DNA from: Mobula birostris
Taxonomy: Eukaryota
Assembly (NCBI RefSeq): GCF_030028105.1
Contig: NC_092397.1
Coordinates: 26,050,630 to 26,114,629, forward strand
Length of the DNA: 64,000 bases
Direction of reading: 5' to 3'
Shown here one piece after another: positions 1,995 through 62,940 of this stretch. The notes under the pieces are model-generated. The model was not told the DNA's origin, made no database searches, and saw only the letters and a program-made list of their open reading frames with translations. A program made the position numbers and the translations under genes. Each line of letters opens with the position of its first letter. Within the stretch, counting starts at the first letter, position 1.

Positions 1995-2570
<576 letters not shown>

Positions 2571-2964
2571 AAAACTCCCACTTCCTCCCGAGCACGAAAC
2601 AAACACCACCCACCGCCTCACGGACGGAGCCGTATCCACACACAAAATTTTGATTATTTTTTATCGATACATTCACCTGAGTTACATTTGCAACAGATTA
2701 ATCGGTTCCGCTTGAAATCAACCTGCGAACCTGCCTTTCCAGTCCGTGATTACAATAAAATCTCTTAATTCATTAAGGTCGATCTTAATCCTTTTATCCG
2801 TCTCGGACAGAAATAAGTTCACTCGTTTAGAGAAACGATTCCGTAATTATGCATTTAAATCTTAACTGAGGGATTTAGATATTAAATAAAAGTGAAATTG
2901 TATAATCCGTGATAGAATTAATTGCAAATAAAAATAATCAGGCAGTTGCTGGCTGCTCTGAAAT

Positions 2965-3182
2965 TGGCGGGCGATTTGAACTGTATCCCGCGCTAATCAC
3001 ATTGCATTCTGATTGGATGACCTCCGACCGCCAGTTAAGAGTTTCTCATTTGGCCCTTAATTGTTATTCGCCTTCAGCCTGCATGAAATGAGTCAACCAA
3101 TCGCAGAAACTAGATCCTTTAATAGACACCTGATGACGAGCCAATCAGAGGCGATGGGACAGTCCTTCTCAAACATTATATA
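2965..3182 (+). promoter_or_regulatory. H3 promoter: CDE/CHR-like element, two CCAAT boxes, TATA
   Basis: TGGCGG-gcga-TTTGAA at 2965-2980; CCAAT at 3097-3101 and 3141-3145; TATATA at ~3177-3182. Confidence 0.7.
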
Positions 3183-4688: not shown

Positions 4689-5312
4689 TTACTTTTTGAC
4701 TGCTGTCTTCTTGGGCTTCGGCGCCGCTTTCTTGGCCGCTGATTTCTTCACTGAGACTTTCTTGGCCGCAGGTTTCTTCGCTGCCGCTTTCTTGGCCGCA
4801 GGTTTCTTCGCTGCCGCTTTCTTGGCCGCTGGTTTCTTCGCTGCCGCTTTCTTGGCTGCTGGTTTCTTCGCTGCCGCTTTCTTGGCTGCTGGTTTCTTCG
4901 CTGCCGCTTGCTTAGCCGCTGGTTTCTTGGCGCCAGACTTCCTGCTGGAAGATTTCTTTACCGATGGCTTGTTCGCTTTCTTCACTGTTTTCACGGCACT
5001 TTTTCCTTGACTGGATTTAAAGGATCCCGAAAGACCCGCGCCCTTGGTCTGAACCAAGGAGCCGCTTTCCACTCTCTTCCTGATGCACATCCTGATCTGG
5101 GCGCGACGTTTCCCCACATCGACACCACTGCTGGTCAAAGCCTTCATGATGGCCACAGCGGACATCCCCTTCCTATCGCGACAATCCGCCACAATCTTAT
5201 CGATTTGTTCGCCCAGCTTGGGACCGGCTGGTTTACACCGGGCAGCCGCCTTCTTCTTGGGAATCTTCTTTGCGGCTGGAGGAGCCGTTTCGGCGGGTGC
5301 TGTCTCGGTCAT
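4689..5312 (-). CDS. H1: Linker histone H1, divergent
   Basis: 207 aa; MTETAPA N-terminus, winged-helix end [17 protein letters not shown]-rich tail; stem-loop and H1 AC box present. Confidence 0.95.
4750..4930 (-). repeat. 30-bp coding tandem repeat ([10 protein letters not shown]) x6 in the H1 tail
   Basis: GGTTTCTT recurs at 4771, 4801, 4831, 4861, 4891 and 4921. Confidence 0.95.
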
Positions 5313-5384
5313 GTCGGCAACTCTGGAAAATCCTTCTCACAATCAGACTGAATGAGAAATGAAGCGAAAGGCGGCGGCACAGAG

Positions 5385-10320: not shown

Positions 10321-10939
10321 CTCCTTCCACCAAATCAATTTTGTGACGCTGATGTTAGGTAGTGTTGATAGTCCAGTTGGAAATCAGTTAGTGGAGAGGA
10401 GGAAGCTGCTCCTAAAACATTACGTGTGTGTTCAGGTTCCTGTACCTCTTCTCCAATGGTAATAATAAAAAGGGGGCACATCCTGGATGGTCCAGAGAGC
10501 AGAGCAGATACAGACCTGACATGGGAGGTTTGAAGGGGAAAGTGAATCCATTTCATGGGACTGGTGAAGCAGATTGACTTGGAGAATTGATCAACAGGAG
10601 ACATGGCCTTTCAGGAGAGCAGCAGCAGCCGGGTCTGTGATTCTGATGTACGGCAGGGGAGGGTGGAGACAAAGAGATCTGTAATCACTGGATTACTCCT
10701 GATGCCAAGTGCTGGTAAGGACAGGGCAGGTGGATGTGAGGATGAGGAGCTGGTACAGGAGAACAGGTTCAGGTTTCCAGCCACTGGGATCTCTGCTGGG
10801 GCAGAGGTGACCTGTAGAAGTGGGACAGGCTGCACTTGAACCAGCCGGGTCAAATATGGGCAGATTTGTTAATGTGTCGCAGGAGGATTGAAATGATTCA
10901 TCAGTGGGTTGGCAACCAAAATAGTGGTGTGGCAGATGA

Positions 10940-11205
10940 TAGCCCTTTACTCTGCCATGATAGTGGCTCCTAAAAGAGCCTTTTGTTGTGTTTAGTGCCA
11001 GGGCTGGGTTCAGGCGGGCTCCCCGCAGAAGCACCGAGCCAGCTGGATGGTAACTTACTCAGCGTGGATGGCGCACAGGTTAGTGTCCTCGAAGAGCCCC
11101 ACCAGGTAAGCCTCGCTCGCCTCCTGCAGGGCCATGACGGCCGAGCTCTGGAAACACAGATGGGTTTCGAAGTGCTGAGCGATCTCCCACACCAGGTGCT
11201 GGAAA
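10940..11205 (-). pseudogene. H3: H3 3'-half pseudogene with retained stem-loop
   Basis: [63 protein letters not shown] (stop at 11010-11012); internal TAA, MPKDI deleted; stem-loop GGCTCTTTTAGGAGCC at 10965-10980. Confidence 0.93.
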
Positions 11206-11930
11206 GCCGAGGATCCAGCTGCACAAGGAGGGACAGAGGCCTCGGTTCTGTAGCTATTTTATCAGGACGAGGAATGATGGTGTTAAATGCTGGGCTCTAG
11301 TCAATAAACAGCATCCTGACATAGGTATTTGTATTGCCCAGGTGCTCCAGTGCTGTGTGGAGAGCCACTGAGATCACATCTACCGCAAACATATTGTGGC
11401 GAGAGGCAAATTGCAGTGGGTCCCGGTCCTTCCTGGGACAGGTGTTCATTCTATCCACGACCAACCTCTCAAAGCATTTCATAACCGGAGATGTGAGTGC
11501 GACTGGACAATAGTCGTTAAGGCAGCTCACACTGACCTTCTTGGGTTCCGGAGCAGTTGTTGCCCTTTTGAAGCAGGTCAGAACTTCTGACTGCAGCAGT
11601 GAGGGATTGAAAATGTCTTTGACCACTTCCAGCAGTTGGTAGGCACAGGTTTTCAGAGCCTTACCAGGTACTCCAGTGGGCCCTGCTGCCCGGCGAGGGT
11701 TCAGCCTCTTGAAAGACAGCCTGATGTCGGCCTCCAAGACAGAGATCACAGGGTCATCAGGCGCTGCACGTATCCTCATAGCTGTGGCTTTATTCTTCCT
11801 CTGAAAGTGAGCATAAAAGGGGTTGAGCTGGTCTGGTTGTGAAGCCTCACTGCCATTCATGATGTTGGGTTTGCTTTGTAGGAAGTAATGGCTGCAACCC
11901 CTGCCAGAGTTGACGTGCATCTGATGCAGG
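11206..11930 (-). mobile_element. Rex1/Babar-like LINE RT fragment
   Basis: LNPRRAAGPTGVPG, CLNDYCPVALTSPVMKCFERLV, DPLQFA and YVRMLFID. Confidence 0.85.
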
Positions 11931-12080: not shown

Positions 12081-12234
12081 GCGGTTCACATCTGGAATTC
12101 ACTGCCTGCAGGGGTTGTGGGAATAAACAAACAGAATGTTCAAAGCCGAATTTGTCAGATCTTGCAGAGTCAGGTATACTGGTTCCAAACCCTCCCCTCA
12201 CCTCCCAGCAATGTTTAAAGTCCATGGTAGACAA

Positions 12235-12360
12235 GGTTAGTTTGTGTGATAAAGACACTCTTCAGTAAAAACACTGACACTGTATTTCAAACACACTGAG
12301 CTGCCAGAGCACAGCACTGGCCGTGAGGACACAGACCAGTACAGCACACAGCTCTCTAAA
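12235..12360 (-). repeat. Conserved block shared with 50710-50845
   Basis: AAACACTGACACTGTAT...CACACTGAGCTGCCAGAGCACAGCAC...GTGAGGACACAGACCAGTACA present at both sites in the same orientation. Confidence 0.85.
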
Positions 12361-12400
12361 TAAAACACAATACTGACAGCCCAGAGCTGGACAACCCAGC

Positions 12401-12729
12401 ATTTCACTGTAACTCTGACCTATAAACATCATTACCCCATCTACAGTATTTCACTGTAACTCTGACCTATAAACATCATTACCCCATCTACAGTATTTCA
12501 CTGTAACTCTGACCTATAAACATCATTACCCCATCTACAGTATTTCACTGTAACTCTGACCTATAAACATCATTACCCCATCTACAGTATTTCACTGTAA
12601 CTCTGACCTATAAACATCATTACCCCATCTACAGTATTTCACTGTAACTCTGACCTATAAACATCATTACTCCATCTACAGTATTTCACTGTAACTCTGA
12701 CCTATAAACATCATTACCTCATCTACAGT
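12401..12729. repeat. 47-bp minisatellite, 7 near-perfect copies
   Basis: Unit ATTTCACTGTAACTCTGACCTATAAACATCATTACCCCATCTACAGT starting at 12401, 12448 ... 12683. Confidence 0.97.
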
Positions 12730-12734
12730 ACACA

Positions 12735-13660
12735 CTTCATAATTTTGTATACCTCTATCTAATCTTGCAACAATATTCTGCATTCCAAGAAATAAAATCC
12801 TAACCTATTTGATCTTTCCAGAGAACTCAGGTCCTTAAGTCCCAGGAACATCCTTGTAAATTTTCTCTGTACTCTTTCAAACTTATTTACATCTTTCTTG
12901 TGGGTAGGTAAACAAAACTGCACACAATACTCCAAATTAGGAGTCACCAATGTCTTACACAACTTCAACATAACATCCATCTCCTGCACTTTGCCCTTTG
13001 TAAATCGAAGTACCATGTGCCTAAACTTTCTTTTTGACTTTATCTATCTGTGATACCACTTACTAGGAATTATGAATCTGTATTTCCAGATCCCTCAGCT
13101 TTAATACACTTTTCAGTGCCCGACTGCTCACCGTGTAAGACCTACCCTGGTTTGTCCTCCGAAAATGCAACACCTCATCCTTGTCAGCATTAAATTCCAG
13201 CTGCTCCAGATCACAGTGCAAGCTTTGAGCATCTTCCTCACTGTTCATTATACCTCCAATCCTGGTGTCATACAGAAAATTGTTGTCCCAGTTCACCACG
13301 TTGTCATCTATATCAAAGATCTGGATGATAAACAATGGACTCAGACTGATTCCTGTGTCACATCACCAGTCACAGGCCTCCCGTCAGAGAAGCAATCATC
13401 TACAACCACTCTCGAACCTAACACTTAATCCAATTTACTACCTCATCTTGATGCTGAATGACTGAACCTTCTTGACCAAGAACCCATGTGAGACCTTGTC
13501 AAAGGCGTTGCTGAAGCCCATGTAGACTACATCCACTGCCTTGCACTCATCAACTTTCCTAGTAACTTGCTCAAAAAAAACTCTACAAGAGTAGTTAGAC
13601 ATGACGTACCATATACAAAGCTATATTAACTATTCCCAATCAGTCCCTGTCTATCCAAAT
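12735..13660 (-). mobile_element. Degenerate CR1 RT fragment
   Basis: PNLEYCVQF, ERVQRKFTRM and LEFNADKDEVLHF. Confidence 0.8.
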
Positions 13661-14417
13661 AATTATATCTATGGTTGTTATATCTAGAATTTATGTCTGG
13701 ATCCAGAGCAAGTGGGCAAGGGACTAAACCAGTACTTCACATCAGTATTCATCAATGTGGTCATCGAGGATAGTGAGATCAGAGACGGGAGTGATGCTGA
13801 TATTCCAGGGCATGTTGTTCCTCAGGCAATAGAGACAAACCAGGAAATTATAGACTGGTGAGATTTGGATCAATGCTCAGGAAATACTCTTAGACGTAGG
13901 ATCTCTCATAAAAGTTTGGAGGGTAAAATGAGGATATCAGGATTTGGAAGGCAAAGTGAGCAAAATCCCAAGAGATTCTCTCGGTATATTCATAGGAAAA
14001 GGGAAGTTAGACGGAAAATCATTCCCCATGGAGATGAACATGGCTTCGGTATGTGGAACCGAAGGAAATAGGAGAGGCTTTCCATGAATATTTCCAACAG
14101 TTATCTCACCATTGAGAAAATACAGAAGCTAAGGAAGTGACAGAAATGAGCTGCGATGTCTTAGACCACATTCAAATGGGCAGGGATCTGTATTTGAGGC
14201 CTTAAGATTCATTAAGGTTGTTAAATCTCCAGGGTCTTATCAGGTACATTCTCGTACTTTGTGGGAAGCTAGAGAATACACTGTGGAGGCCAGGGGAGAG
14301 AGGGGACATGTTCAGCCAGATGGGATCAGTTGTGGTCAGTGCAGACACTGTGGGCTGAAGGGCCTTTCCCTGTGCTGGACTGTCCCACGTGTGTTGTGTG
14401 TTGAAACTCAGACGGAC

Positions 14418-15050
14418 ACTCACTGTTACCGGTCGGCAGGCAGGAAGAGAAGAAGCCGGTGTTCACAGTGGAGGTGCAGTCAGGTCCACCAGTCCGCTCC
14501 CACATCCACATGGCAATGGCAGAGAACAAGGAGCAGCTCGTCTCATCACCTCTGTGGCCCATTCCATCACCTCTCATTCTTCCAAAGGGCAGCAAGTTCA
14601 GACCGACCCTTCAGTTCAGTCGCTGCCGCCCCGCCGGGGGGAGGAAGCCTCACCTCCACCCCGGACCCAGGGCGCTCCCCCTCCCCACTCCGCGGCCCGT
14701 TGCCGAGGCAACGAGTCTCACGCTCCATGTGCTTCTCTGTGACGTCACAAGCAGCGACTCGGCAACGGGACGGGAAGGCAGCGGCCCAGGAGGCGGGGCA
14801 GAGTGAGCTGTCAATCAGAGGAGCCGCTGGTAAAGCTGCAAATGGGTCAATGTACTCTTCATGGAAAAGGCCCGATCAGCGGGGGAAACCGCAACTCGAC
14901 CCCGGGTCCAGAGCCCTCCCCGACCCTGGGGACTTTTCCAAGACTGCACTCTGGCTCTTGGACGTCTTTCCGCAAGATGCTGTCCTGTCACGTGATATCG
15001 CGGCCGCAGCCCGGGAGGAGGAGCGATGTAGCTGTCAATCAGAGGAGCGG
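14418..15050 (-). promoter_or_regulatory. CpG-rich promoter and putative non-coding first exon (unit A)
   Basis: X-box GTTGCCGAGGCAAC at 14699-14712; CRE TGACGTCA at 14740-14747; GC box ~14791; TGATTGACAG (minus) at 14808-14817 and 15032-15041; CACGTG at 14989-14994; minus-strand donor CA|GTGAGT at 14418-14423. Confidence 0.65.
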
Positions 15051-15885
15051 CAGCGGGCCGTCACTGTGCTCAGAGGGATTTTGGTGTCAAACCTGTAACT
15101 GGAGGGAAAATGAACCTCTTGTAAACGAAAACAATAAAGATGTGGAAAATGGAAATGAGCGAGGTACAGTATAAAACTAAACAGAAGGGAAAGCTAATGC
15201 TGAGATGTTTAGTATGAATCAATTTCAGACATTCCACCCTGCAAAAACTCATTTCAGAGAAATAGCATCACCATTTCAGGATTTCAGGGAGGTAGCACCG
15301 CCCCCCCGTCCTCCAGCAAGCCCACATCTCCCCCACCCCCGGTCGACCTCCTAGGGCGCATGTATACGGGACATTTGATTATGAAAGAACACAACAATTT
15401 GACACATATAGTAACTATTTACACACATACACATACACATATATATGTATACATACATACACATATTCCTTCTTGAGTATTTTGTTGGCAATCTCAATGT
15501 TAATGCAAATAACTTTTCTATTTCTTTTGCAAACTTTCCTTGTACTGTGATGTGGCTCTGCTGAAAAGAACTGTGAAATACTTGAGCAGCCTTCCCTGCG
15601 ATTAGCCGCCCTAATATGTTATGGTCCCTAAAAAAAAGCATAAGGTGTATCCTTATTATATTGTCTTATGTAATACTTTGTTTAGTGATTTTGTCTAATC
15701 TGTAAACTGGGTATCTGCAGAAAATGTGACATTAAAATATGTACTTATAGATTATTATAGAGTCATTTTTTTATTCTATTACAACTTTAAGCACGTGTAC
15801 AGGGAGTTTGGCCTCGTCACATAGGACATCAATAGAGTAGCTCTTTAGCAGCTAGCCAGCCAGTTTAAATAACATTAGTTATGCT

Positions 15886-16494
15886 ACAGGAGCAGGGAGG
15901 TACTACTGCAGTTGTACAAGGCCTTAGTGAGACCACACCTGGAGTATTGTGTGCAGTTTTGGTCCCCTAATCTGAGGAAAGACATTCTTGCCATGGAGGG
16001 AGTACAAAGAAGGTTCACCAGATTGATTCCTGGGATAGCAGGACTTTCGTATGATGAAAGACTGGATCGGCTAGGCTTATACCCTCTGGAATTTAGAAGA
16101 TTGAGGGGGGATCTGATTGAAACGTATAAAATTCTAAAGGGATTGGACAGGCTAGATGCAGGAAGATTGTTCCCGATGTTGGGGAAGTCCAGAATGAGGG
16201 GTCACAGTTTGAGGATAAAGGGGAAGCCTTTTAGGACCGAGATGAGGAAAAACTTCTTCACACAGAGAGTGGTGAATCTGTGGAATTCTCTGCCACAGGA
16301 AACAGTTGAGGTCAGTTCATTAGCTATATTTAAGAGGGAGTTAGATATGGCCTTTGTGGCTAAAGGGATCAGGGGGTATGGAGAGAAGGCAGGTACAGGG
16401 TTCTGAGTTGGATGATCAGCCATGATCATACTGAATGGCGGTGCAGGCTTGAAGGGCCGAATGGACTACTCCTGCACCTATTTTCAATGTTTCT
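15886..16494 (+). mobile_element. 5'-truncated CR1 LINE 3' end
   Basis: ORF 15912-16406 closely matches the C-terminus of 28372-30051; CR1 tail present. Confidence 0.92.
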
Positions 16495-16904
16495 AATGAA
16501 CGAATGACGCCTGTTAAACTCACCTCAACATGCCTTTTACAGTCTTAACCCACCATGGGCAATAGAAAAGTCATTGTTGCAAACAGGGCAGCGAGCAACA
16601 CTGTCGTTATTTTTGACCTCTATTAGGCAGGAGTACACTTTAATGTAGTCTGCAGTGATGTAAGTTTTATGTTTTCTTTTATTGAAACACTTTGCCATAG
16701 CGGTGCAGGACACGAAACTGAACTGATGGAGAGACAGAGGTCGACTGTAAAGCCCACCCACAGAGAAATTGGATGTCCAGTCCCTATATACTTCCATCCC
16801 GCATCAGGAAGGTCTCAAAGCTCTCCGATTCTTTTTGGATTCCAGACCAAACCAGTTCCCCTCTACCACCACTCTGCTCCGTCTAGCGGAATTAGTCCTT
16901 ACTC

Positions 16905-23704: not shown

Positions 23705-23900
23705 GCCCTTTTTATACCTTCTTTGAGAATGCAAACTGATGTTTGTGATTGGTGTAACCGTGCTTATTCTCATTGGTGAAGAGAAATATCCCAATCGAAG
23801 AGCTGCCTTAATCACCAATCAGCAGTCCGTAAAGGTAGAAGCGCGGAAAGTAACCGTCTCCTCCCCAAAGTTCACTGAAATTTCGAAAAAGCCCGCCAGA
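23705..23900 (-). promoter_or_regulatory. H2A promoter
   Basis: TATAAAA at ~23710-23716; CCAAT boxes at ~23748 and ~23772 (minus) and ~23792 and ~23815 (plus); TGGCGGGC-TTT-TTCGAA at ~23882-23898. Confidence 0.75.
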
Positions 23901-24511
23901 AAATAAATCTCTTGTTCAAATTTAATCAGAAATTAAATAATTGCTGATCTGTTTGACGACTGAGTGTTCGTACTTCCCCGTTACTGAAACCGGGCACATT
24001 TAATCCAAGTGTAGTTGATATTGAAATGTCTGGGAACTCAATTCTCTAATTTCTTTCAACCCGTAACGGAACCGAGTAAAACTGAATCTCAGCTTCTGCC
24101 CGCGGTCGGTCATTGTGTAAACGTTATCAGGTTATGGACAAACGGCTCTTCTCAAACTGTGACCAGCCTCTAGATTGCAATTTAAAAATGTTCTATGAAA
24201 CAATCATGAACTCGTTCAGGCCTCGCATTGAAATAATATTCAGAGAAGTTACCTAACTGTAACTAACAAACTCCTGAACCCACAGCTAAAACAGCAAAGG
24301 CAGCAATCCTCCGCTCGACATGGATACCAGCAGGGGCGACTGATGAGGATGGGAAGGTAACAAGTCCGTGTCAGTGCAGTGGGAGGAATGTAAAACACCG
24401 GGATTATACGGAGATGAACTCTACCTTAGCTCTTGTAAAAGACACCAGACATAAAATGTGTGCAATTTAGTGTCTAAATTTTAGTATAACCCTCTTAGTG
24501 AAATTGTGAGT

Positions 24512-31570: not shown

Positions 31571-32750
31571 TTTACAGGGCAGAAAAGACTGAATTTCTGT
31601 CTGAGAATCTCAAACACAACAGTGTGTCGGTTCTCACGTGTTTGTCAGTTCCCCAACATTCGAATGCTACCAACCATTGAATGTGAAGGATGAGATGGTT
31701 GAGAAGACAGCACACTAGTCTTTGCAAGGAGAACCCCAATATGTGGACATGTCCATGATCTGACCTGATAAATGGCCAGTGTTGATACTGGTGAGCTGAC
31801 ATTCACCGCAAGGGATTCACCAGGCCACTGCACTCGCAGATACACCAGCAAGTTCACACGGGAAGAGGCCATTCACCTGCTCCGTGTGTGGGACAGGATT
31901 CATTCAGTCACATGAGCTCTTACAACACCAGCCAGTTCACACGGGGAGAGGCCATTCACCTGCTCTGTGCATGGGACGGGATTGATTCAGTCACATGACC
32001 TCTTACAACACCAGCAAGTTCACACGGGAAGAGGCCATTCACCTGCTCTGTGCATGGGGCGGGATTGATTCAGTGACATGGGCTATTACAATACCAGGCA
32101 GTTCACACGGGGAGAGGACATTCACCTGCTCCGTGTGTGGGGCGGGATTGATTCAGTCACATGAGCTATTACAATACCAGCCAGTTCACACGGGGAGAGG
32201 ACATTCACCTGCTCCGTGTGTGGGACAGGATTCATTCAGTCACATGAGCTATTACAACACCAGCCAGTTCACACGGGGAGAGGACATTCACCTGCTCCGT
32301 GTGTGGGGCGGGATTTATTCAGTGACATGAGCTATTACAACACCAGCCAGTTCACACGGGAAGAGGACATTCACCTGCTCCGTGTGTGGGGCGGGATTTA
32401 TTCAGTGACATGAGCTATTACAACACCAGCCAGTTCACACGGGGAGAGGACATTCACCTGCTCCGTGTGTGGGGCGGGATTTATTCAGTGACATGAGCTA
32501 TTACAATACCAGGCAGTTCACGCCAGTGAGCAGCTGTACTTGGCTCTGTTGTCTCGGTCTCTCAGTATAGCTTCACACCTGCTCCGAGTGTGGGAGGAGA
32601 TTCATTCAGTTCACCCACTTTGTGAGGCTCCAGTGAGTTTATAATACATAGAGGACACACTTCGGTCTTGTGTCGGTAAGGAAGTTTATGCAGTCATCCC
32701 ACCTGCTGAAACACTGGCAACTTCACAGCAGGGAGGAAGTTGAAATAAGC
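31571..32750 (+). pseudogene. Tandem C2H2 zinc-finger pseudogene
   Basis: Repeated [23 protein letters not shown]; frameshift in every linker; TGA stops; C->H and H->Y ligand losses; degenerate flanking fingers; candidate acceptor TTTTACAG at ~31571-31577. Confidence 0.88.
31843..32520 (+). repeat. 83-bp tandem array derived from a zinc-finger unit, 8 full copies plus a partial
   Basis: Unit starts at 31843, 31926, 32009, 32092, 32175, 32258, 32341, 32424 and 32507. Confidence 0.95.
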
Positions 32751-33804
32751 TCCATGTGAACATTTTAATCATCATGGTGACTGAATCTAGTTGGAAGTTC
32801 ATGTGAGACTGTTAATGTCAGATTCTGCAGATATTGCAACTGATCACTGAGCATTGGAGAGTTCATTCTGCTGATGTTAGTTTTAAACAACACTGGTGTT
32901 TAATATTGTGGATCTGTGACAAATTAATCAGTTCTATTTCAGATCCTGTGTCTCAGGTGCTTCCCGCCTGTCACACAGCTAATGTACAGTAGACAGGCCA
33001 CTCAGTTCATCTGGTACCTGCTCATATTCCTGTTGCACAGCAGAGCTTTCAAACCCATCCCTGCTGTTCACCACTCACTCACCCTATAAAATTCAGCTTG
33101 CAACTGCTCACCGGTCTGTGAATGAACAGGTTTACTTTGAATTAAATCCCGAACTTTCTGGAAACTGCAGAAGATGAATTCACGAGGGTTTTGTCCCAAA
33201 TATTCCTCATCCCTCACAGCTCTGGACCAAGGAAGAAGTCTTGTGTGCTTAAAATCTTCCTGTCCTGCTCTATTCATTATTTTGTCATTTTCACTGATTT
33301 CGAAGGTCTGTGCCTCACCCTGCTGGGCTGTTGCAATACAACACTCTCCTCTAAAGTACGACAGCAGAATGGTAGAGCAGAAACAAGAGGAGTCAGCACA
33401 AATGAGGGCTTTGGGGCTCCAGATGTGATGGAGGCTCAAGTTTACGTGGAGTAGAAGGGAATCAGACCAGGAGGATGAGGCTGCAAATGAAAGTTCAGCA
33501 ACATTTGGAAACTGATTGAAAAAAAGAGGTTTATGTTTGCAAAGTGCTGGAGGGAGTCAGTGGCCCCAGCAGCATCTATGCAGAGGAATAAATAGTTGAT
33601 ATTATGGGCCAAGACACTTCATCCTATCTAGACTGTTTATTCCTCTGTTTAGCTGCTGCCTGACCTGCTGAGTTCCCGCAGTACTTTGTGTGTGTTAGTT
33701 TACAGTTTATTCCCAGCATCTGCTGAACCTCGAGTTTCATATCTGCATTTCGAAGTGAGCGGGACTTTGACAGTTGTCACACAAAGTGCCTGTTGACATT
33801 GAGT

Positions 33805-36454: not shown

Positions 36455-36870
36455 TTATCGCCCTTCCTTATACAGTCTGGAGGATAGTCGTGGGGCGTTT
36501 ATGATTGGTGAAACAGTGCCTTATCTGATTGGAAAGATGAAGTATTCTAATCAGAGAGCTGCTTTATTCACCAATCAAGAGACAGCAACGGCAGAAGCGC
36601 GGAAAATAACCGTTTAACCGCTGAAATAAACTGAAATTTGCAAAAGACCGCCAAAAAAGCCGTTGCTGTTGAAATTAAACAGGTTTGTTTGTCGACCCTT
36701 TACCCCCGTTACTGGAGTCCGACACATTTAAACCGGGTGTAGTTAATACTGCGATGGTGTCTGGGAACTTAGTTCACCGATTTCTTTCAATTGATAAACG
36801 ATTGGAATAAAACAGATTCTCTACTTCTGTTCGCGGTCGGTCATTGTGAACGGGTCGCCCTTCAGAAAGT
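36455..36870 (-). promoter_or_regulatory. Orphan H2A promoter / H2B-H2A spacer (H2A CDS absent)
   Basis: Collinear similarity to ~23700-24150, including TATA (~36468-36473), ATTGG boxes, GAGCTGC..TCACCAATC and AGAAGCGCGGAAA. Confidence 0.8.
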
Positions 36871-41270: not shown

Positions 41271-41606
41271 GTAATGTTAGTTACATTTTTCACACTCCAC
41301 CATATCACCAACTTTAGTGACATCGATAAATTTGCTGAGCCGGGCAGTGACGTTATCAGCCGAGTCTTTAATAAATGGACAACAGCAGCAGCCCTGACTC
41401 AGCTCCCGGGCTTTTCCTCGCAGCGATATACGCGCAGTGCTGGAGGCACTCAGCAGGCCAGGCAGCATCTATGAGAAACTGGAAACAGCCAACGTTTTAG
41501 GCCGAGACCCTCCATCAGCATCTGCAGAAATGTCTTGTGTTTACTCTTCCATCGATTCAAAGTTACTGGATAACATGACCCATCCTCCAATCCTCTGCCA
41601 CCACTC

Positions 41607-41812
41607 CTGCCCGAGAAACGCGCAGAGACACAGAGGCGGGGAGGGGAGGAGACAGAGTCAGAGTGACGGACAGAGCCGAGAGCGGCCTCTCATCGTCCAG
41701 GTCCGTCTTCACTTTAATACACCCGGCAATTTCCAACGGTTTGTCCGAAACACAGAGTTCCAGAGAGAGAGAAAAAACTCCCTCACACACCACGTACAGA
41801 AGGAGTTCTAGG
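41607..41812 (-). promoter_or_regulatory. Orphan H4 promoter copy, truncated just before the TATA box
   Basis: Aligns with ~1990-2183 and ~42690-42875; no TATA box or H4 CDS follows. Confidence 0.85.
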
Positions 41813-42254
41813 AATTTACTGGCGATTGGACTTCATCGGATCAGAATACAGTGTGATTGGCGCAGGATCAATTTCAAATTGCCCGCCAATTTCAGAGCAC
41901 CCAGCAACGGTGATGGAAGACTTTTTAAAAAATTATTTACCGTTAGTTTTATCACGTATTATACAATCTCAGTTTCATTTAATAAATTTAATATCTAATC
42001 CCCAGAGTTAAGATTTAAATGCATAATTACGGAATCGTTTCTCTAAACGAGTGAACTGATTTCTATCCGAGACGGATAAAAGGATGAAGATCGATCTTAA
42101 TGCGTTCAGAGGTTCTATCACGGACTGGAAAGGCAGATTCGCAGGAATATCTCAAGCCGAACCGATTAATCTGTTTCAAATGTAACTCAGCTGAATGTAT
42201 CGATACAAACAATTAAAAGTCTGTGGATACGGCTCCGTCTGTGAGGCGGTGGGT

Positions 42255-42270
42255 GGCTCTTAGAAGAGCC
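42255..42270 (-). terminator. Histone stem-loop (H4 copy 2)
   Basis: GGCTCTTCTAAGAGCC followed by ACCCA. Confidence 0.93.
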
Positions 42271-42303
42271 TTTGTTTTGTGCTCGGGAGGAAGTGGGAGA
42301 TTT

Positions 42304-42624
<321 letters not shown>

Positions 42625-42879
42625 TCACTCAGGTCGCTGCTCACTGACAAACTGCCTGCTGCTGTCTCCTTTTATACACAGCGCCCCGACCTGCCCGAGA
42701 AACGCGCAGAGAGACAGAGGCGGGGAGGGGAGGAGACAGAGTCAGAGTGACGGACAGAGCCGAGAGCGGCCTCTCATCGTCCAGCTCCGCCTTCACTTTA
42801 CCACAACCGCCAATTTCCAACGATTCATCCGACACAAAGCGCTTCAGCGAAAAACAAAACTCCCTCACACACAGTCTGA

Positions 42880-50130: not shown

Positions 50131-50709
50131 GTCCACACACTGATCATGCAGAATGTCACAAGGTCAAGGTCATCCCAGAGGCTAATCCAGTAAGACAATC
50201 TGGATAGAAATCAGGAATAGGAAAAGTGCAATCACTATGATAGGGTTATACTGTAGGCCTCCCAATAGCCAGTAAGAGACAGAAACAGATATGTTAGCAG
50301 GTTATGGGATGATGTAAAAATCAAGAGAGTAGATTTGGTGAGTGAATATCTCCTCAGAGTAACTGGGATTCTCTTACACCCTGAGGCTTGGATGGAGCAT
50401 TAAGGTTTCCTGAAACAATATGTCGTCCACCAGGGAGGGGGACATTCTTGACTTCACCTTGGGAAATATGGGACTCAGCGGAGTGGTGGCAGGAACAACC
50501 AGTGTTCAAAGAGGAATTAGACAGGTCCTTCAGGAGAAATGACCTGCAGTGCTGTGGGGACAGAGTGGGGAATGGGACTGTGGAAATGTTGTAGCAGGAG
50601 TTAGTATTAACTTGACGGGTCAAATAGTCTCGACGATCACAGAATGATTCTCTGCCCAATAATAGTCTGAAAAAATCATTCTGGTCGCCAGTGAATCTTC
50701 CAAGCTCCA

Positions 50710-50845
50710 GGATGGACAAGATCAATTGTGTAATAAGGACACACTTCTGTCGAAACACTGACACTGTATACCAAGCACACTGAGCTGCCAGAGCACAGCA
50801 CCGGCCAGTGAGGACACAGACCAGTACAACACCCGGCTCTCTACT
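50710..50845 (-). repeat. Conserved block shared with 12235-12360
   Basis: See 12235-12360. Confidence 0.85.
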
Positions 50846-55960: not shown

Positions 55961-57027
55961 CCTCTCTCCCCAGAGGGAGACTGCAATCTGGAACACACTG
56001 CCTGAGGGGGTGGTGCAGGCTGGTATTTAAGGACCATCTGGATGAGCATTTGAATCACGAAGGCAGGGTAGGAGACAGACCAAGTGCTGAGTTAGTGGGG
56101 ACAGATTCTCAATGGTCGGTATAGACACGCAGAAACCACTGACTGTGAAAGTGCAGGGGGAATCTGAAACACAGAACTTCAGGGTGGACTCAGCTAAAAC
56201 ATTCAGAACCCAGTACGATGGATTTTTGTTGGACAAAGGTACTAATGGCCACATACTGAACCAACCCCCTCAAAAGGTGACCAAAATGCTGCCATTCCCT
56301 GTGCACCAGTAACAATACTTTTGTCTGGGAATTTGGTGAAGTATTCTGGGTGATATTAGGAGATATGTCTGACACCTTGGTCACAGTGGGAGGGTGCAAA
56401 TATTTTCTCAGAGGGTAAGGGGTTCAGTGGAACAAGCTCACAGCTGAGAATGAAGGTGACAAACCCCACTGCAGTGGAGGACTGCTGTGGTCAGGGTTGT
56501 ACAGGATAGAAACAGACCCTGCGGCCCATCACATTTATGCTCCCCATCATGCACAGCTGTAATAATCCCACTTTCCTGCATTAGTTTCATATCCCTCTGG
56601 GCCTTGCTCACTGAAGCCCCTGTGCATGTGCCTCTAATATTGTTACACAGTTCCCTGTATGTGGCATCACAGGTAGACAGGGTTGTGTGTTCTACTTGCC
56701 TTGTCAGTCAAAGAACTGCCTCTCATTAGAGTTGGACAAAACTGTTTAAAGACAGATTTAAAGGGGATCTGAGGGGTAAATATTTCACACAGAGAATAAC
56801 TGGCATCCGGAATTAACTCCCAAAATAGAGTCACTGGTTTATACAGAAATGAAACAGTCCCTTCAGTACAACTCATCCCCGCCGACCAAGTTGTCGACCT
56901 GAACTCGGCCCATCTGCCTGCATTAGGCCCGAATCCCTCTCAACCTTTCCCATCCATGTGACTGTGCAAATATGTTTTAAATATTGTACCTGAGGCAGAG
57001 AGCCGGTGCAGTGAGGCGCTGACAGAC

Positions 57028-57270
57028 ACTCACTGTTCCGCGGACAGGAAGAGGAGAGGCGGATCCCACAGCGGAGCCGAAACCCCAACAAGTAGAGACC
57101 GGCTCCACCATCTCGGACTTCCCGCACTGGACCGTTTCCACGGAAACGACGACGGTGACTGTAGGGCTTTGTGACGTCAGCGCGCCACGGGTCAACAATC
57201 GCATGGAGTCACGTGACAGTAACCCGACAGCTGGGGAGGCGGGGCAGAGGGAGCTGTCAATCAGCAGAGC
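57028..57270 (-). promoter_or_regulatory. CpG-rich promoter and putative non-coding first exon (unit B)
   Basis: X-box GTTTCCACGGAAAC at 57134-57147; CRE at 57172-57179; GTCACGTGAC at 57208-57217; GC box ~57236; TGATTGACAG (minus) at 57254-57263; donor CA|GTGAGT at 57028-57033. Confidence 0.65.
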
Positions 57271-57589
57271 GGCTGAAAAACTTTTCACCATTGTGAACAG
57301 AATGGGGAGAGCGGGAGATTTCCTGGGACGTGACCCACTCCCCCATTCCCTGGAATTGAGTGTGTTATACACAGTAACATTCATATTATAATTTAGCTCT
57401 TCGATCTTATAAATATGTCATGTTTGTATTTTGTATATTTTTGTGTGGATAATCTTTTATAATTTGGGATGAAGGATGTTGGAACTAGATCACTGGAAAA
57501 AAACGTCACGGAAAAATATTGTCAAAGCCAAAATATTAATCCAAAGTAAGTTGTTATCACACTTCGCATAAGGCACCATATAGTTCAAA

Positions 57590-61553: not shown

Positions 61554-61884
61554 CTAAGTAGACCTATCAGTTTTCTCTGTGGGCGGGCTTTACAGTCGAC
61601 CTCAAAAATAATGACAGTGTTGCTCGCTGCACCTTTTGCAACAGTGACCTTTCTACTGCCCATGGTGGGTTAAAATGTAAAAGACATGTTGAGGTGAGTT
61701 TAACAGGTGTCATTACAGCATAGCTAACGTTATTTAAACTAGCTGGTTAGCTGCTAAGGAACAACGCTATTGATGTCCTACGTGATGAGGCCAACCTCCC
61801 TGCAGACTTGCTTAAAGTTGTAATAGAATAAACATGATAATAAAATATAATATAACACATATTTTAATGTCACATTTGCTGCAT

Positions 61885-62750
61885 ATAGTCATAGTCATAG
61901 TCATACTTTATTGATCCTGGGAGAAATTGGTTTTCGTTACAGTTGCACCATAAATAATAAATAGTTAAATAGTAATATGTAAATTATGCCAGGAAATAAG
62001 TCCAGGACCAGCCTATTGGCTCAGGGTGTCTGACCCTCCAAGGGAGGAGTTCTAAAATTTGATGGCCACAGGCAGGAATGACTTCCTATGACGCTCTGTG
62101 TTGCATCTCAGTGGAATGAGTCTCTGGCTGAATGTACTCCTGTGCCCAACCAGTACATTATGTAGTGGATGGGAGACGTTGTCCAAGATGGCATGCAACT
62201 TGGGCAGCATCTTCTTTTCAGACACCACAGTCAGAGAGTCCAGTTCCATCCCCACAACATCACTGGCCTTACGAATGAGTTTGTTGATTCTGTTGGTGTC
62301 TGCTACCCTCAGCCTGTTGCTCCAGCACACAACAGCAAACATGATAGCACTGGCCACCACAGACTCGTAGAACATCCTCAGCATCGTCCGGCAGATGTTA
62401 AAGGACCTCAGTCTCCTCAGGAAATAGAGATGGCTCTGACCCTTCTTGTAGACAGCCTCAGTGTTCTTTGACCAGTCCAGTTTATTGTCAATTCGTATCC
62501 CAGGTATTTGTAATCCTCCACCATGTCCACCCTGACCCCCTGGATGGAAACAGGGGTCACCGGTCCATTAACCCTCCTCAGGTCTACCACCAGCTCCTTA
62601 GTCTTTTTCACATTAAGCTGCAGATCATTCTGCTCACACCATGTGACAAAGTTTCCTACCATAGCCCTGTACTCAGCCTCATCTCCCTTGCTGATGCATC
62701 CAACTATGGCAGAGTCATCAGAAAACTTCTGAAGATGAAAAGACTCTGTG
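61885..62750 (-). mobile_element. Rex1-like LINE 3' portion
   Basis: LQLNVKKTKELVVD, YKYLG and FYESVVASAIMFAVVCW; AATAAA plus (GACTAT)n tail. Confidence 0.85.
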
Positions 62751-62940
62751 CACTAGTATACCCAACTTGGTTTACAGATTAGACAAAATCACTAAACAAA
62801 GTATTACATACACACTTGGAGGTCAACGGGCGGGAGGGGGGAATATGGTGTTGCAGGGGGCGGGGGAGCTACCTCCCTGAAATGGTGGTGCTACCTCCCT
62901 GAAATGAGTTTTTGCAGGGTGGGATGTCTGTGGTTTGCTC

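Follow-up and report, generated by a model that had tools for sequence, protein, structure and literature searches.

A duplicated CpG island, a probable promoter with a non-coding first exon, in a ray histone gene cluster

The segment at positions 14418–15050 of the window (the whole 64,000-nucleotide stretch of DNA analysed here), referred to as unit A, very probably holds a genuine promoter and first exon, irrespective of what follows. The fuller reading that we favour, at a probability of roughly 50%, is that of a general-purpose CpG-island promoter and non-coding first exon belonging to a low-copy gene unit of the birth-and-death type, which now yields a non-coding transcript. A paralogous unit, unit B, lies at 57028–57275, also on the minus strand.

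Unit A contains an RFX X-box, GTTGCCGAGGCAAC, at 14699–14712, a perfect palindrome in which GTTGCC forms an inverted repeat with a 2-nt spacer. A motif scan placed a full CRE (TGACGTCA) within a 12-bp palindrome, TGTGACGTCACA, at 14738–14749, and a GC box of the Sp/KLF type at 14790–14798 (plus strand). The decamer TGATTGACAG occurs twice on the minus strand, at 14808–14817 and at 15032–15041, inside identical conserved 18-mers (14807–14824 and 15031–15048), and an E-box is present at 14989–14994. The X-box, CRE, GC box, decamers and E-box had been named in the preliminary description, together with a splice donor, and all were recovered in place. What we take to be a possible MYB half-site sits at the edge of the X-box (14695–14701), and it overlaps or flanks the X-box in both units. 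No TATA box, CCAAT/ATTGG or poly(A) signal occurs inside unit A or unit B, and an Rfam search of unit A gave no match. By the definition of PMC2797782 the X-box of unit A is an ideal palindrome, and the decamer is the DECA motif of the TALE factors PREP–PBX (PMC6023610).

The earlier claim of a CpG-rich island also holds. Over its 633 bp (14418–15050) unit A has a GC content of 0.62 and a CpG observed/expected ratio of 0.68, compared with 0.33 for the background (the window outside the histone genes and the units), and the corresponding values for unit B (57000–57300, 301 bp) are 0.60 and 0.90. Both units are therefore CpG islands as defined by a GC content >50%, an observed/expected ratio >0.6 and a length of at least 200 bp. 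When 14418–15050 was shuffled 3,000 times with dinucleotide content preserved, the X-box arose by chance in 0.9%, the CRE in 0.8%, the GC box in 3.9% and the decamer in 0.1% of cases. All four main motifs arose jointly in 0 of 3,000 shuffles of unit A, and likewise in 0 of 3,000 of unit B. This motif set was picked after the motifs had been seen, so that a stronger control is their confinement across the 64 kb: the X-box pattern is found at only two sites and the exact decamer at only three, all of them within the units. Unit A thus combines general activator motifs beyond chance expectation with the lack of a TATA box.

The recurrence of the cassette and donor that had been described near 57028–57270 was borne out by unit B. 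Motif scanning located its donor (57034, minus strand), X-box (57134–57147), CRE (57172–57179), GC box (57236–57244) and decamer (57254–57263), and an E-box (57210–57215) lies between the CRE and the GC box. Unit A is in addition duplicated internally, with 14640–14828 matching 14875–15051 (nhmmer E 1.1e-8), and its tandem copies are homologous to unit B too (E 1.5e-8). In the first copy the E-box is gone, and the other four motif types (X-box, CRE, GC box and decamer) survive. In the second copy (14875–15051, minus strand) the X-box and CRE have decayed and the E-box and decamer are intact, the former being intact within unit A only there; unit B retains all five motif types. The duplicated 18-mer noted previously is real, with two identical copies; it is where a tandem duplication of about 200 bp, which took in the entire cassette, is best preserved. 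Pairwise identity among the three cassettes is 60–64% over about 200 columns of a three-way alignment, and between units A and B it rises from 64% overall to 90% in the 41-bp core that holds the GC box and decamer. About 150 bp of the unit A exon (about 14480–14625) is an insertion absent from unit B, and no alignment was obtained between the introns or the upstream flanks of the two units. The motifs and donor have been kept amid flanks that cannot be aligned, which argues for selection on them; this conservation presumably reflects function and is our main evidence for it. Units A and B are paralogues, probably old ones of a low-copy, lineage-specific gene unit, with the cassette of unit A having been duplicated in tandem later.

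The 5′ splice site of unit A, ACA GTGAGT, lies at 14418–14426 on the minus strand with 14424 as the last exon base. Its context, AACAGTGAGTGTC, is common to unit B, as is the arrangement of AACA followed by GTGAGTGTC. The site is of moderate strength (6.5 bits, in the top 3.8% of 7,357 GT sites by a weight matrix), and the matrix also gives a stronger donor-like site at 14654. Between 0.21 and 0.49 of the sequence words of the unit were present in 12 sequencing runs from three studies and three coded organisms, eight of which are guessed to be RNA. Alignment to 12760–15350 was carried out for four of the 12 runs, using contigs only, with the RNA status of the runs guessed and no DNA-run control among them. 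In two of these four, from two studies and two coded organisms, a contig ends at the predicted donor with no loose letters. The contig of run X1 (235 nt) covers 14424–14658 and that of run X5 (272 nt) covers 14423–14693, both aligned end to end. One end falls on the final base of the exon and the other on the intron's first G, the pattern expected at a fork between spliced and unspliced paths. This is at best a weak hint of splicing, in runs that are only guessed to be RNA; transcription and use of the donor at unit A are likewise weakly hinted at. The contig of run X9 ends at 14439, away from the donor. From the X5 contig, the probable non-coding first exon would span 14424–14693 (minus strand), with its 5′ end just below the X-box. 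No joint leading from 14424 into 12760–15350 is found among the 15 of 78 joints listed, and neither these nor the listed loose ends (24 of 972) and pieces (32 of 4,728) name a partner exon of 14424. The next exon may lie beyond the window or across a long intron, and could be coding.

A further contig, from run X2, is 2,559 nt long, and 594 of its letters match 14476–15069 with 16 differences. It departs from the window sequence at 14476, and since this break coincides with the edge of the insertion specific to unit A, the contig suggests a related copy of the unit with a different continuation. The 1,963 unmatched letters are probably on the downstream side, the alternative being a plus-strand continuation past 15069; the side was judged from the coordinates of repeat contigs, in which 3 of 6 minus records have a break in common with a plus record if coordinates are plus-oriented and 0 of 6 do otherwise. 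One of the 16 differences falls within motifs, compared with 1.5 expected, an avoidance that is not significant, and the sparing of the core from CRE to decamer has P of about 0.08. The single difference in the X-box changes a half-site to the form present in unit B. Contigs of both X1 and X2 cease to match at 15069, upstream of the second decamer, which could represent an upstream start site, the end of a plus-strand exon or a sequence difference between organisms. The interval 15109–15195 has no cover in any of the four aligned runs, and summed depth differs between 14424–15069 and 13717–14238; neither serves here as evidence, as contig depth cannot rank the parts of a gene.

On the opposite strand, a frame of about 224 codons (14424–15098, plus strand) is open across unit A. 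An extra base at 14658, present in the contigs of all four aligned runs, would shift this frame, and a protein search with it found none among 432 candidates (a weak negative). Given the insertion and the lack of relatives, it is probably a chance product of GC-rich sequence. The exon frame of unit B was sought among longer proteins, with none in 581 candidates (a weak negative), and comparison of the unit A exon ORF with 1.84 billion representatives gave six matches, four of which were inspected and are unrelated repeat proteins (also a weak negative).

We propose that unit A is a TATA-less CpG-island promoter for RNA polymerase II, acting on the minus strand and followed by a non-coding first exon. 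The promoter would be kept open by PREP–PBX on the decamer, Sp/KLF factors on the GC box and CREB/ATF on the CRE, as well as by an RFX dimer on the X-box and a USF/MYC-type factor on the E-box. Transcription would start mainly just below the X-box, at about 14690, with some contigs extending to 15069, and the first exon would then be spliced at 14424, as the contig ends weakly hint. The product would be a broadly expressed non-coding transcript, either a lncRNA or a gene whose coding body has been lost among transposon insertions, and a 139-bp segment found below both units would be the likeliest next conserved part of it. The paralogous units would have spread through birth-and-death duplication of the histone/zinc-finger cluster, with tandem duplication of the unit A cassette afterwards.

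The proposed promoter is similar to the vertebrate TATA-less CpG-island promoters (PMC3820735; for RFX, PMC4971761 and PMC5838959) in being CpG-rich and lacking a TATA box, in having its GC box, CRE, E-box and X-box no more than about 150 bp from where transcription is inferred to begin, and in having a predicted 5′ splice site a few hundred bases below that point. It differs from them in that five motif types occur in a fixed order, where human promoters usually have one cardinal type (PMC3820735), and in that the cassette is repeated as a paralogue and as a tandem copy. TALE DECA elements of the zebrafish blastula contain exactly the same TGATTGACAG with an adjacent Sp/KLF-type motif but have a CCAAT/NF-Y site (PMC6023610), none of which is present near units A or B. 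In the literature covered, which includes few subscription journals, there is no description of the promoter cassette, and the available parts of PMC8455134 and 10.64898/2026.10.27.761883 contain nothing on the promoter family. The parts and logic of the cassette are already well known, and the cassette itself is without a published description that we could find.

Pattern scans of metagenome contigs returned eight loci, none alignable to the window, and scans of viral contigs returned none in either of two cases. Five of the loci (L002, L003, L005, L006 and L007) are unrelated, probably eukaryotic metagenome contigs in which the decamer lies 5–6 bp from a GC box, with a CRE and CCAAT also nearby in L005 and L007 and no C2H2 motif in any of the five. 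The occurrence of this pair in unrelated contigs suggests that it belongs to a general promoter grammar. The SXY module of MHC promoters, which consists of an X1 site for RFX5, a CRE-like X2 site and a CCAAT Y box, likewise unites an RFX site and a CRE in one promoter. Identity of units A and B with this module was rejected, as 24–27 bp separate their X-box from their CRE where the module has them side by side, the X-box is fully palindromic and a CCAAT Y box is absent.

The window is a repeat-dense histone cluster with eight histone genes or remnants, six of them on the minus strand. An H4 gene (2259) and an H3 gene (3254) are on the plus strand, and an H1 gene (5312–4689), an H3 remnant (10938–11204), an H2A gene (23641), two H2B genes (24933 and 37632) and a second H4 gene (42615) are on the minus strand. 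In the whole window, Rfam histone stem-loops were found after H1, H2A and one H2B. The H1 and H2B proteins fall into clusters with entries assigned to Mobula birostris and Mobula hypostoma, which makes the source of the window a manta or devil ray. Self-matches, for the most part pieces of LINEs and DNA transposons, account for about 38% of its length. Orphaned parts elsewhere in the cluster, namely an H2A-type promoter (36497–36848), the H3 remnant and a broken C2H2 exon, are parallels for birth-and-death turnover, so that the same process of duplication and loss fits units A and B. The orphan H2A-type promoter has a 70% match to the H2A promoter region (23741–24117) and sits 3′ of the second H2B gene with no adjoining H2A gene. 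The H3 remnant, taken as 10938–11260, is 80% identical in DNA sequence to the intact H3 gene and retains a stem-loop-like end; a LINE fragment truncates its 5′ side, and an acceptor-like pyrimidine tract and AG are present near 11225.

Batoid genomes probably contain many two-part zinc-finger genes among their histone genes, which counts toward a second, rather unlikely reading in which a ray family of KRAB-less C2H2 genes has the unit as its standard promoter and 5′ non-coding exon, the finger exons of units A and B having been lost or lying outside the window. Also in its favour, the cluster holds a broken finger exon that has an acceptor and apparently no first exon, and the 1,963 extra letters of the X2 contig, which are probably downstream, are about the size of a finger exon. 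The broken exon, at about 31578–32700 (31578–32900 at its widest) on the plus strand, is a frameshifted multi-finger C2H2 exon with internally duplicated 83-bp finger units and a good acceptor at 31577 (Pfam zf-C2H2 E 2e-4, which is under the curated cut-off); beyond an H2B promoter lies a strong donor on the plus strand (25191), which is a candidate for the donor of its first exon. Clustered znf genes of zebrafish have common promoter types (10.1101/2021.08.09.455629, 10.1101/2022.11.29.518450), either sharp with a TATA box or broad without one among the paralogues of chromosome 4, and units A and B resemble these in sharing a promoter type within a repeat-rich cluster that holds C2H2 sequence. 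A stingray histone cluster has been likened to this chromosome-4 region (10.1101/2025.06.08.657570). Unlike in zebrafish, no finger exon is tied to units A or B: neither of the two has one downstream on its strand, no C2H2 or other coding exon was found in the window on the minus strand below them apart from histones and LINE fragments, and no cassette resembling the units precedes the window's sole finger exon on that exon's own strand. Protein searches with the exon-1 frames and with the 5′ frame of the finger exon (0 of 4 for the latter) gave no fused models, which are weak negatives, and an unbranched 2.5-kb contig would be atypical of a finger family with many copies. Were the cassette a cartilaginous-fish zinc-finger promoter, it would provide a handle on the co-regulation of hundreds of genes without KRAB. 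On the reading that we consider most likely its import is small: it flags a transcription unit that is non-coding or has gone unannotated, and supplies a sequence tag with which the members of a paralogous promoter family could be counted across batoid histone/zinc-finger clusters.

The 139-bp segment, which starts at an AG, is located at 12221–12358 on the minus strand, 2.1 kb below the donor of unit A, and at 50706–50843 on the minus strand, 6.2 kb below the donor of unit B. The two copies are 85% identical (E 5e-36) and in the same orientation amid DNA that cannot be aligned, and there is no third copy within the window. Its 5′ half folds as a hairpin on the strand of the units (z −3.75 for A and −1.63 for B, compared with −1.27 and +0.94 on the opposite strand), and the folding energy is matched by 0.07% (A) and 0.2% (B) of 1,500 GC-matched 76-mers from the window. 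Differences in the stem preserve pairing through one-sided changes, with one two-sided change in 42 pairs across the two copies. The segment may be a second exon, an RNA element of the intron or a piece of a repeat, and we regard it as a lead and not a result. Its conservation and folding speak for a reading in which the units host a small RNA, with the hairpin (pri-miRNA-like or snoRNA-like, intronic or exonic) as the functional product, but we consider this reading unlikely. Covariation is nearly absent and only two copies are available; the strand is rich in G and U, which favours G–U pairs; the B stem is short for a microRNA precursor; and the H box is absent between the hairpins of the A copy. 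No Rfam family corresponds to the segment, with nothing significant in 12150–12400 at E up to 5 and only histone stem-loops in the whole window at the gathering score. The window has 19 two-copy segments, the majority of them pieces of repeats or duplicated histone sequence, and a repeat adjoins the B copy, so that the neat AG start may be an insertion edge. Analysed as a ray-specific family of RNA polymerase II host genes in the histone cluster, the units would give rise from the hairpin to an undescribed small RNA, possibly active in the germline or early embryo, for which miR-430 and the znf genes of zebrafish chromosome 4 are a model; we consider this improbable, and the finding would matter more if it were true. 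A 47-bp tandem array (12397–12730, 7.1 copies, 98% matches) lies directly upstream of the A copy.

The preliminary description correctly noted that unit A is oriented toward the H3 remnant (10938–11204) and H1 (5312–4689). Its view of a duplicated promoter with a non-coding first exon and no coding sequence of its own is supported by the present analysis, but the link that it drew to these histone sequences is not. We judge it very unlikely that the unit is a germline alternative promoter, driven by RFX2 and CREM, whose transcript is joined to the H3 remnant or to H1 as in testis variants of histones. A perfect X-box and a CRE do lie near the inferred start, acceptor-like AGs are present at 5347 above H1 and near 11225 in the H3 remnant, and the possible MYB half-site is found beside both X-boxes and may give a germline boost. 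Pachytene targets of RFX2, including H1t, bear X-boxes (PMC2797782), and in H1t, as in unit A, the X-box is near the start and within a histone cluster. In the same paper, however, the H1t X-box is in the gene's own proximal promoter and not in a distant first exon, whereas that of unit A is not in a histone promoter and the nearby H1 has a normal replication-dependent one. This H1 has a complete promoter of that type (AAACACA box, CCAAT and TATA-like element) and a stem-loop, and it groups with other Mobula H1-like proteins, at least six similar ones including itself, which makes it a cluster H1 and not a lone variant. The H3 copy is broken, with residues 68–136 only; six of the eight histone copies are on the minus strand, which renders pointing toward them uninformative; and the nearest same-strand histone gene is 14 kb from unit B. 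The factors concerned are moreover general. The CRE/E-box and GC box are 'cardinal' motifs, among the commonest of general promoters (PMC3820735), the human promoters of RFX1/2/3/5/7 are broadly active (PMC5838959), the TALE factors that bind the decamer have broad expression (PMC6023610), and CREB and RFX motifs alone confer promoter activity in reporter assays in neurons (PMC4971761). Germline activity is unsupported, though not refuted, and a link to the histone genes is unlikely. In the H1 protein (4689–5312, minus strand) the globular domain is divergent and the tail is made up of repeated units.

Many mobile elements have a CpG-rich promoter closely followed by a donor, fragments of LINEs and DNA transposons abound in the region (the 38% of the window in self-matches), and the contig letters suggest alleles or near-identical copies elsewhere. 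Even so, it is very doubtful that the unit is the 5′ end of a transposable element (an internal promoter or LTR) unlinked to host genes, because there are only three cassettes in 64 kb, they are 60–64% identical with the motifs best kept, neither unit contains a poly(A) signal, and no common element ORF follows units A and B. It is highly improbable that an ordinary duplicated coding gene, neither zinc-finger nor histone, has the unit as its first exon, with coding exons beyond the window or missed. CpG islands that combine an X-box, a CRE and a GC box characterize housekeeping and ciliary genes (PMC5838959, PMC3820735) and the 1,963 X2 letters are unexplained, but an intron from unit A would need to run past H1, H3 and H4 in 14 kb and one from unit B past several histone genes, and no coding exon was seen below either unit in the window.

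The window contains no tRNA genes, and none of eight non-histone ORFs from it was present in the protein collection by exact look-up. The segments 15226–15885, 16503–16616 and 61602–62930 are parts of a single DNA-transposon-like element, which is found directly upstream of unit A, where it is split by a young CR1-type insertion (15885–16492), and again, inverted, close to the end of the window. The H4 gene and its flanks form an inverted 1-kb duplicate with 90% identity (2002–3038 and 41815–42872), and a further H4-type promoter without a gene lies at about 41600–41800.
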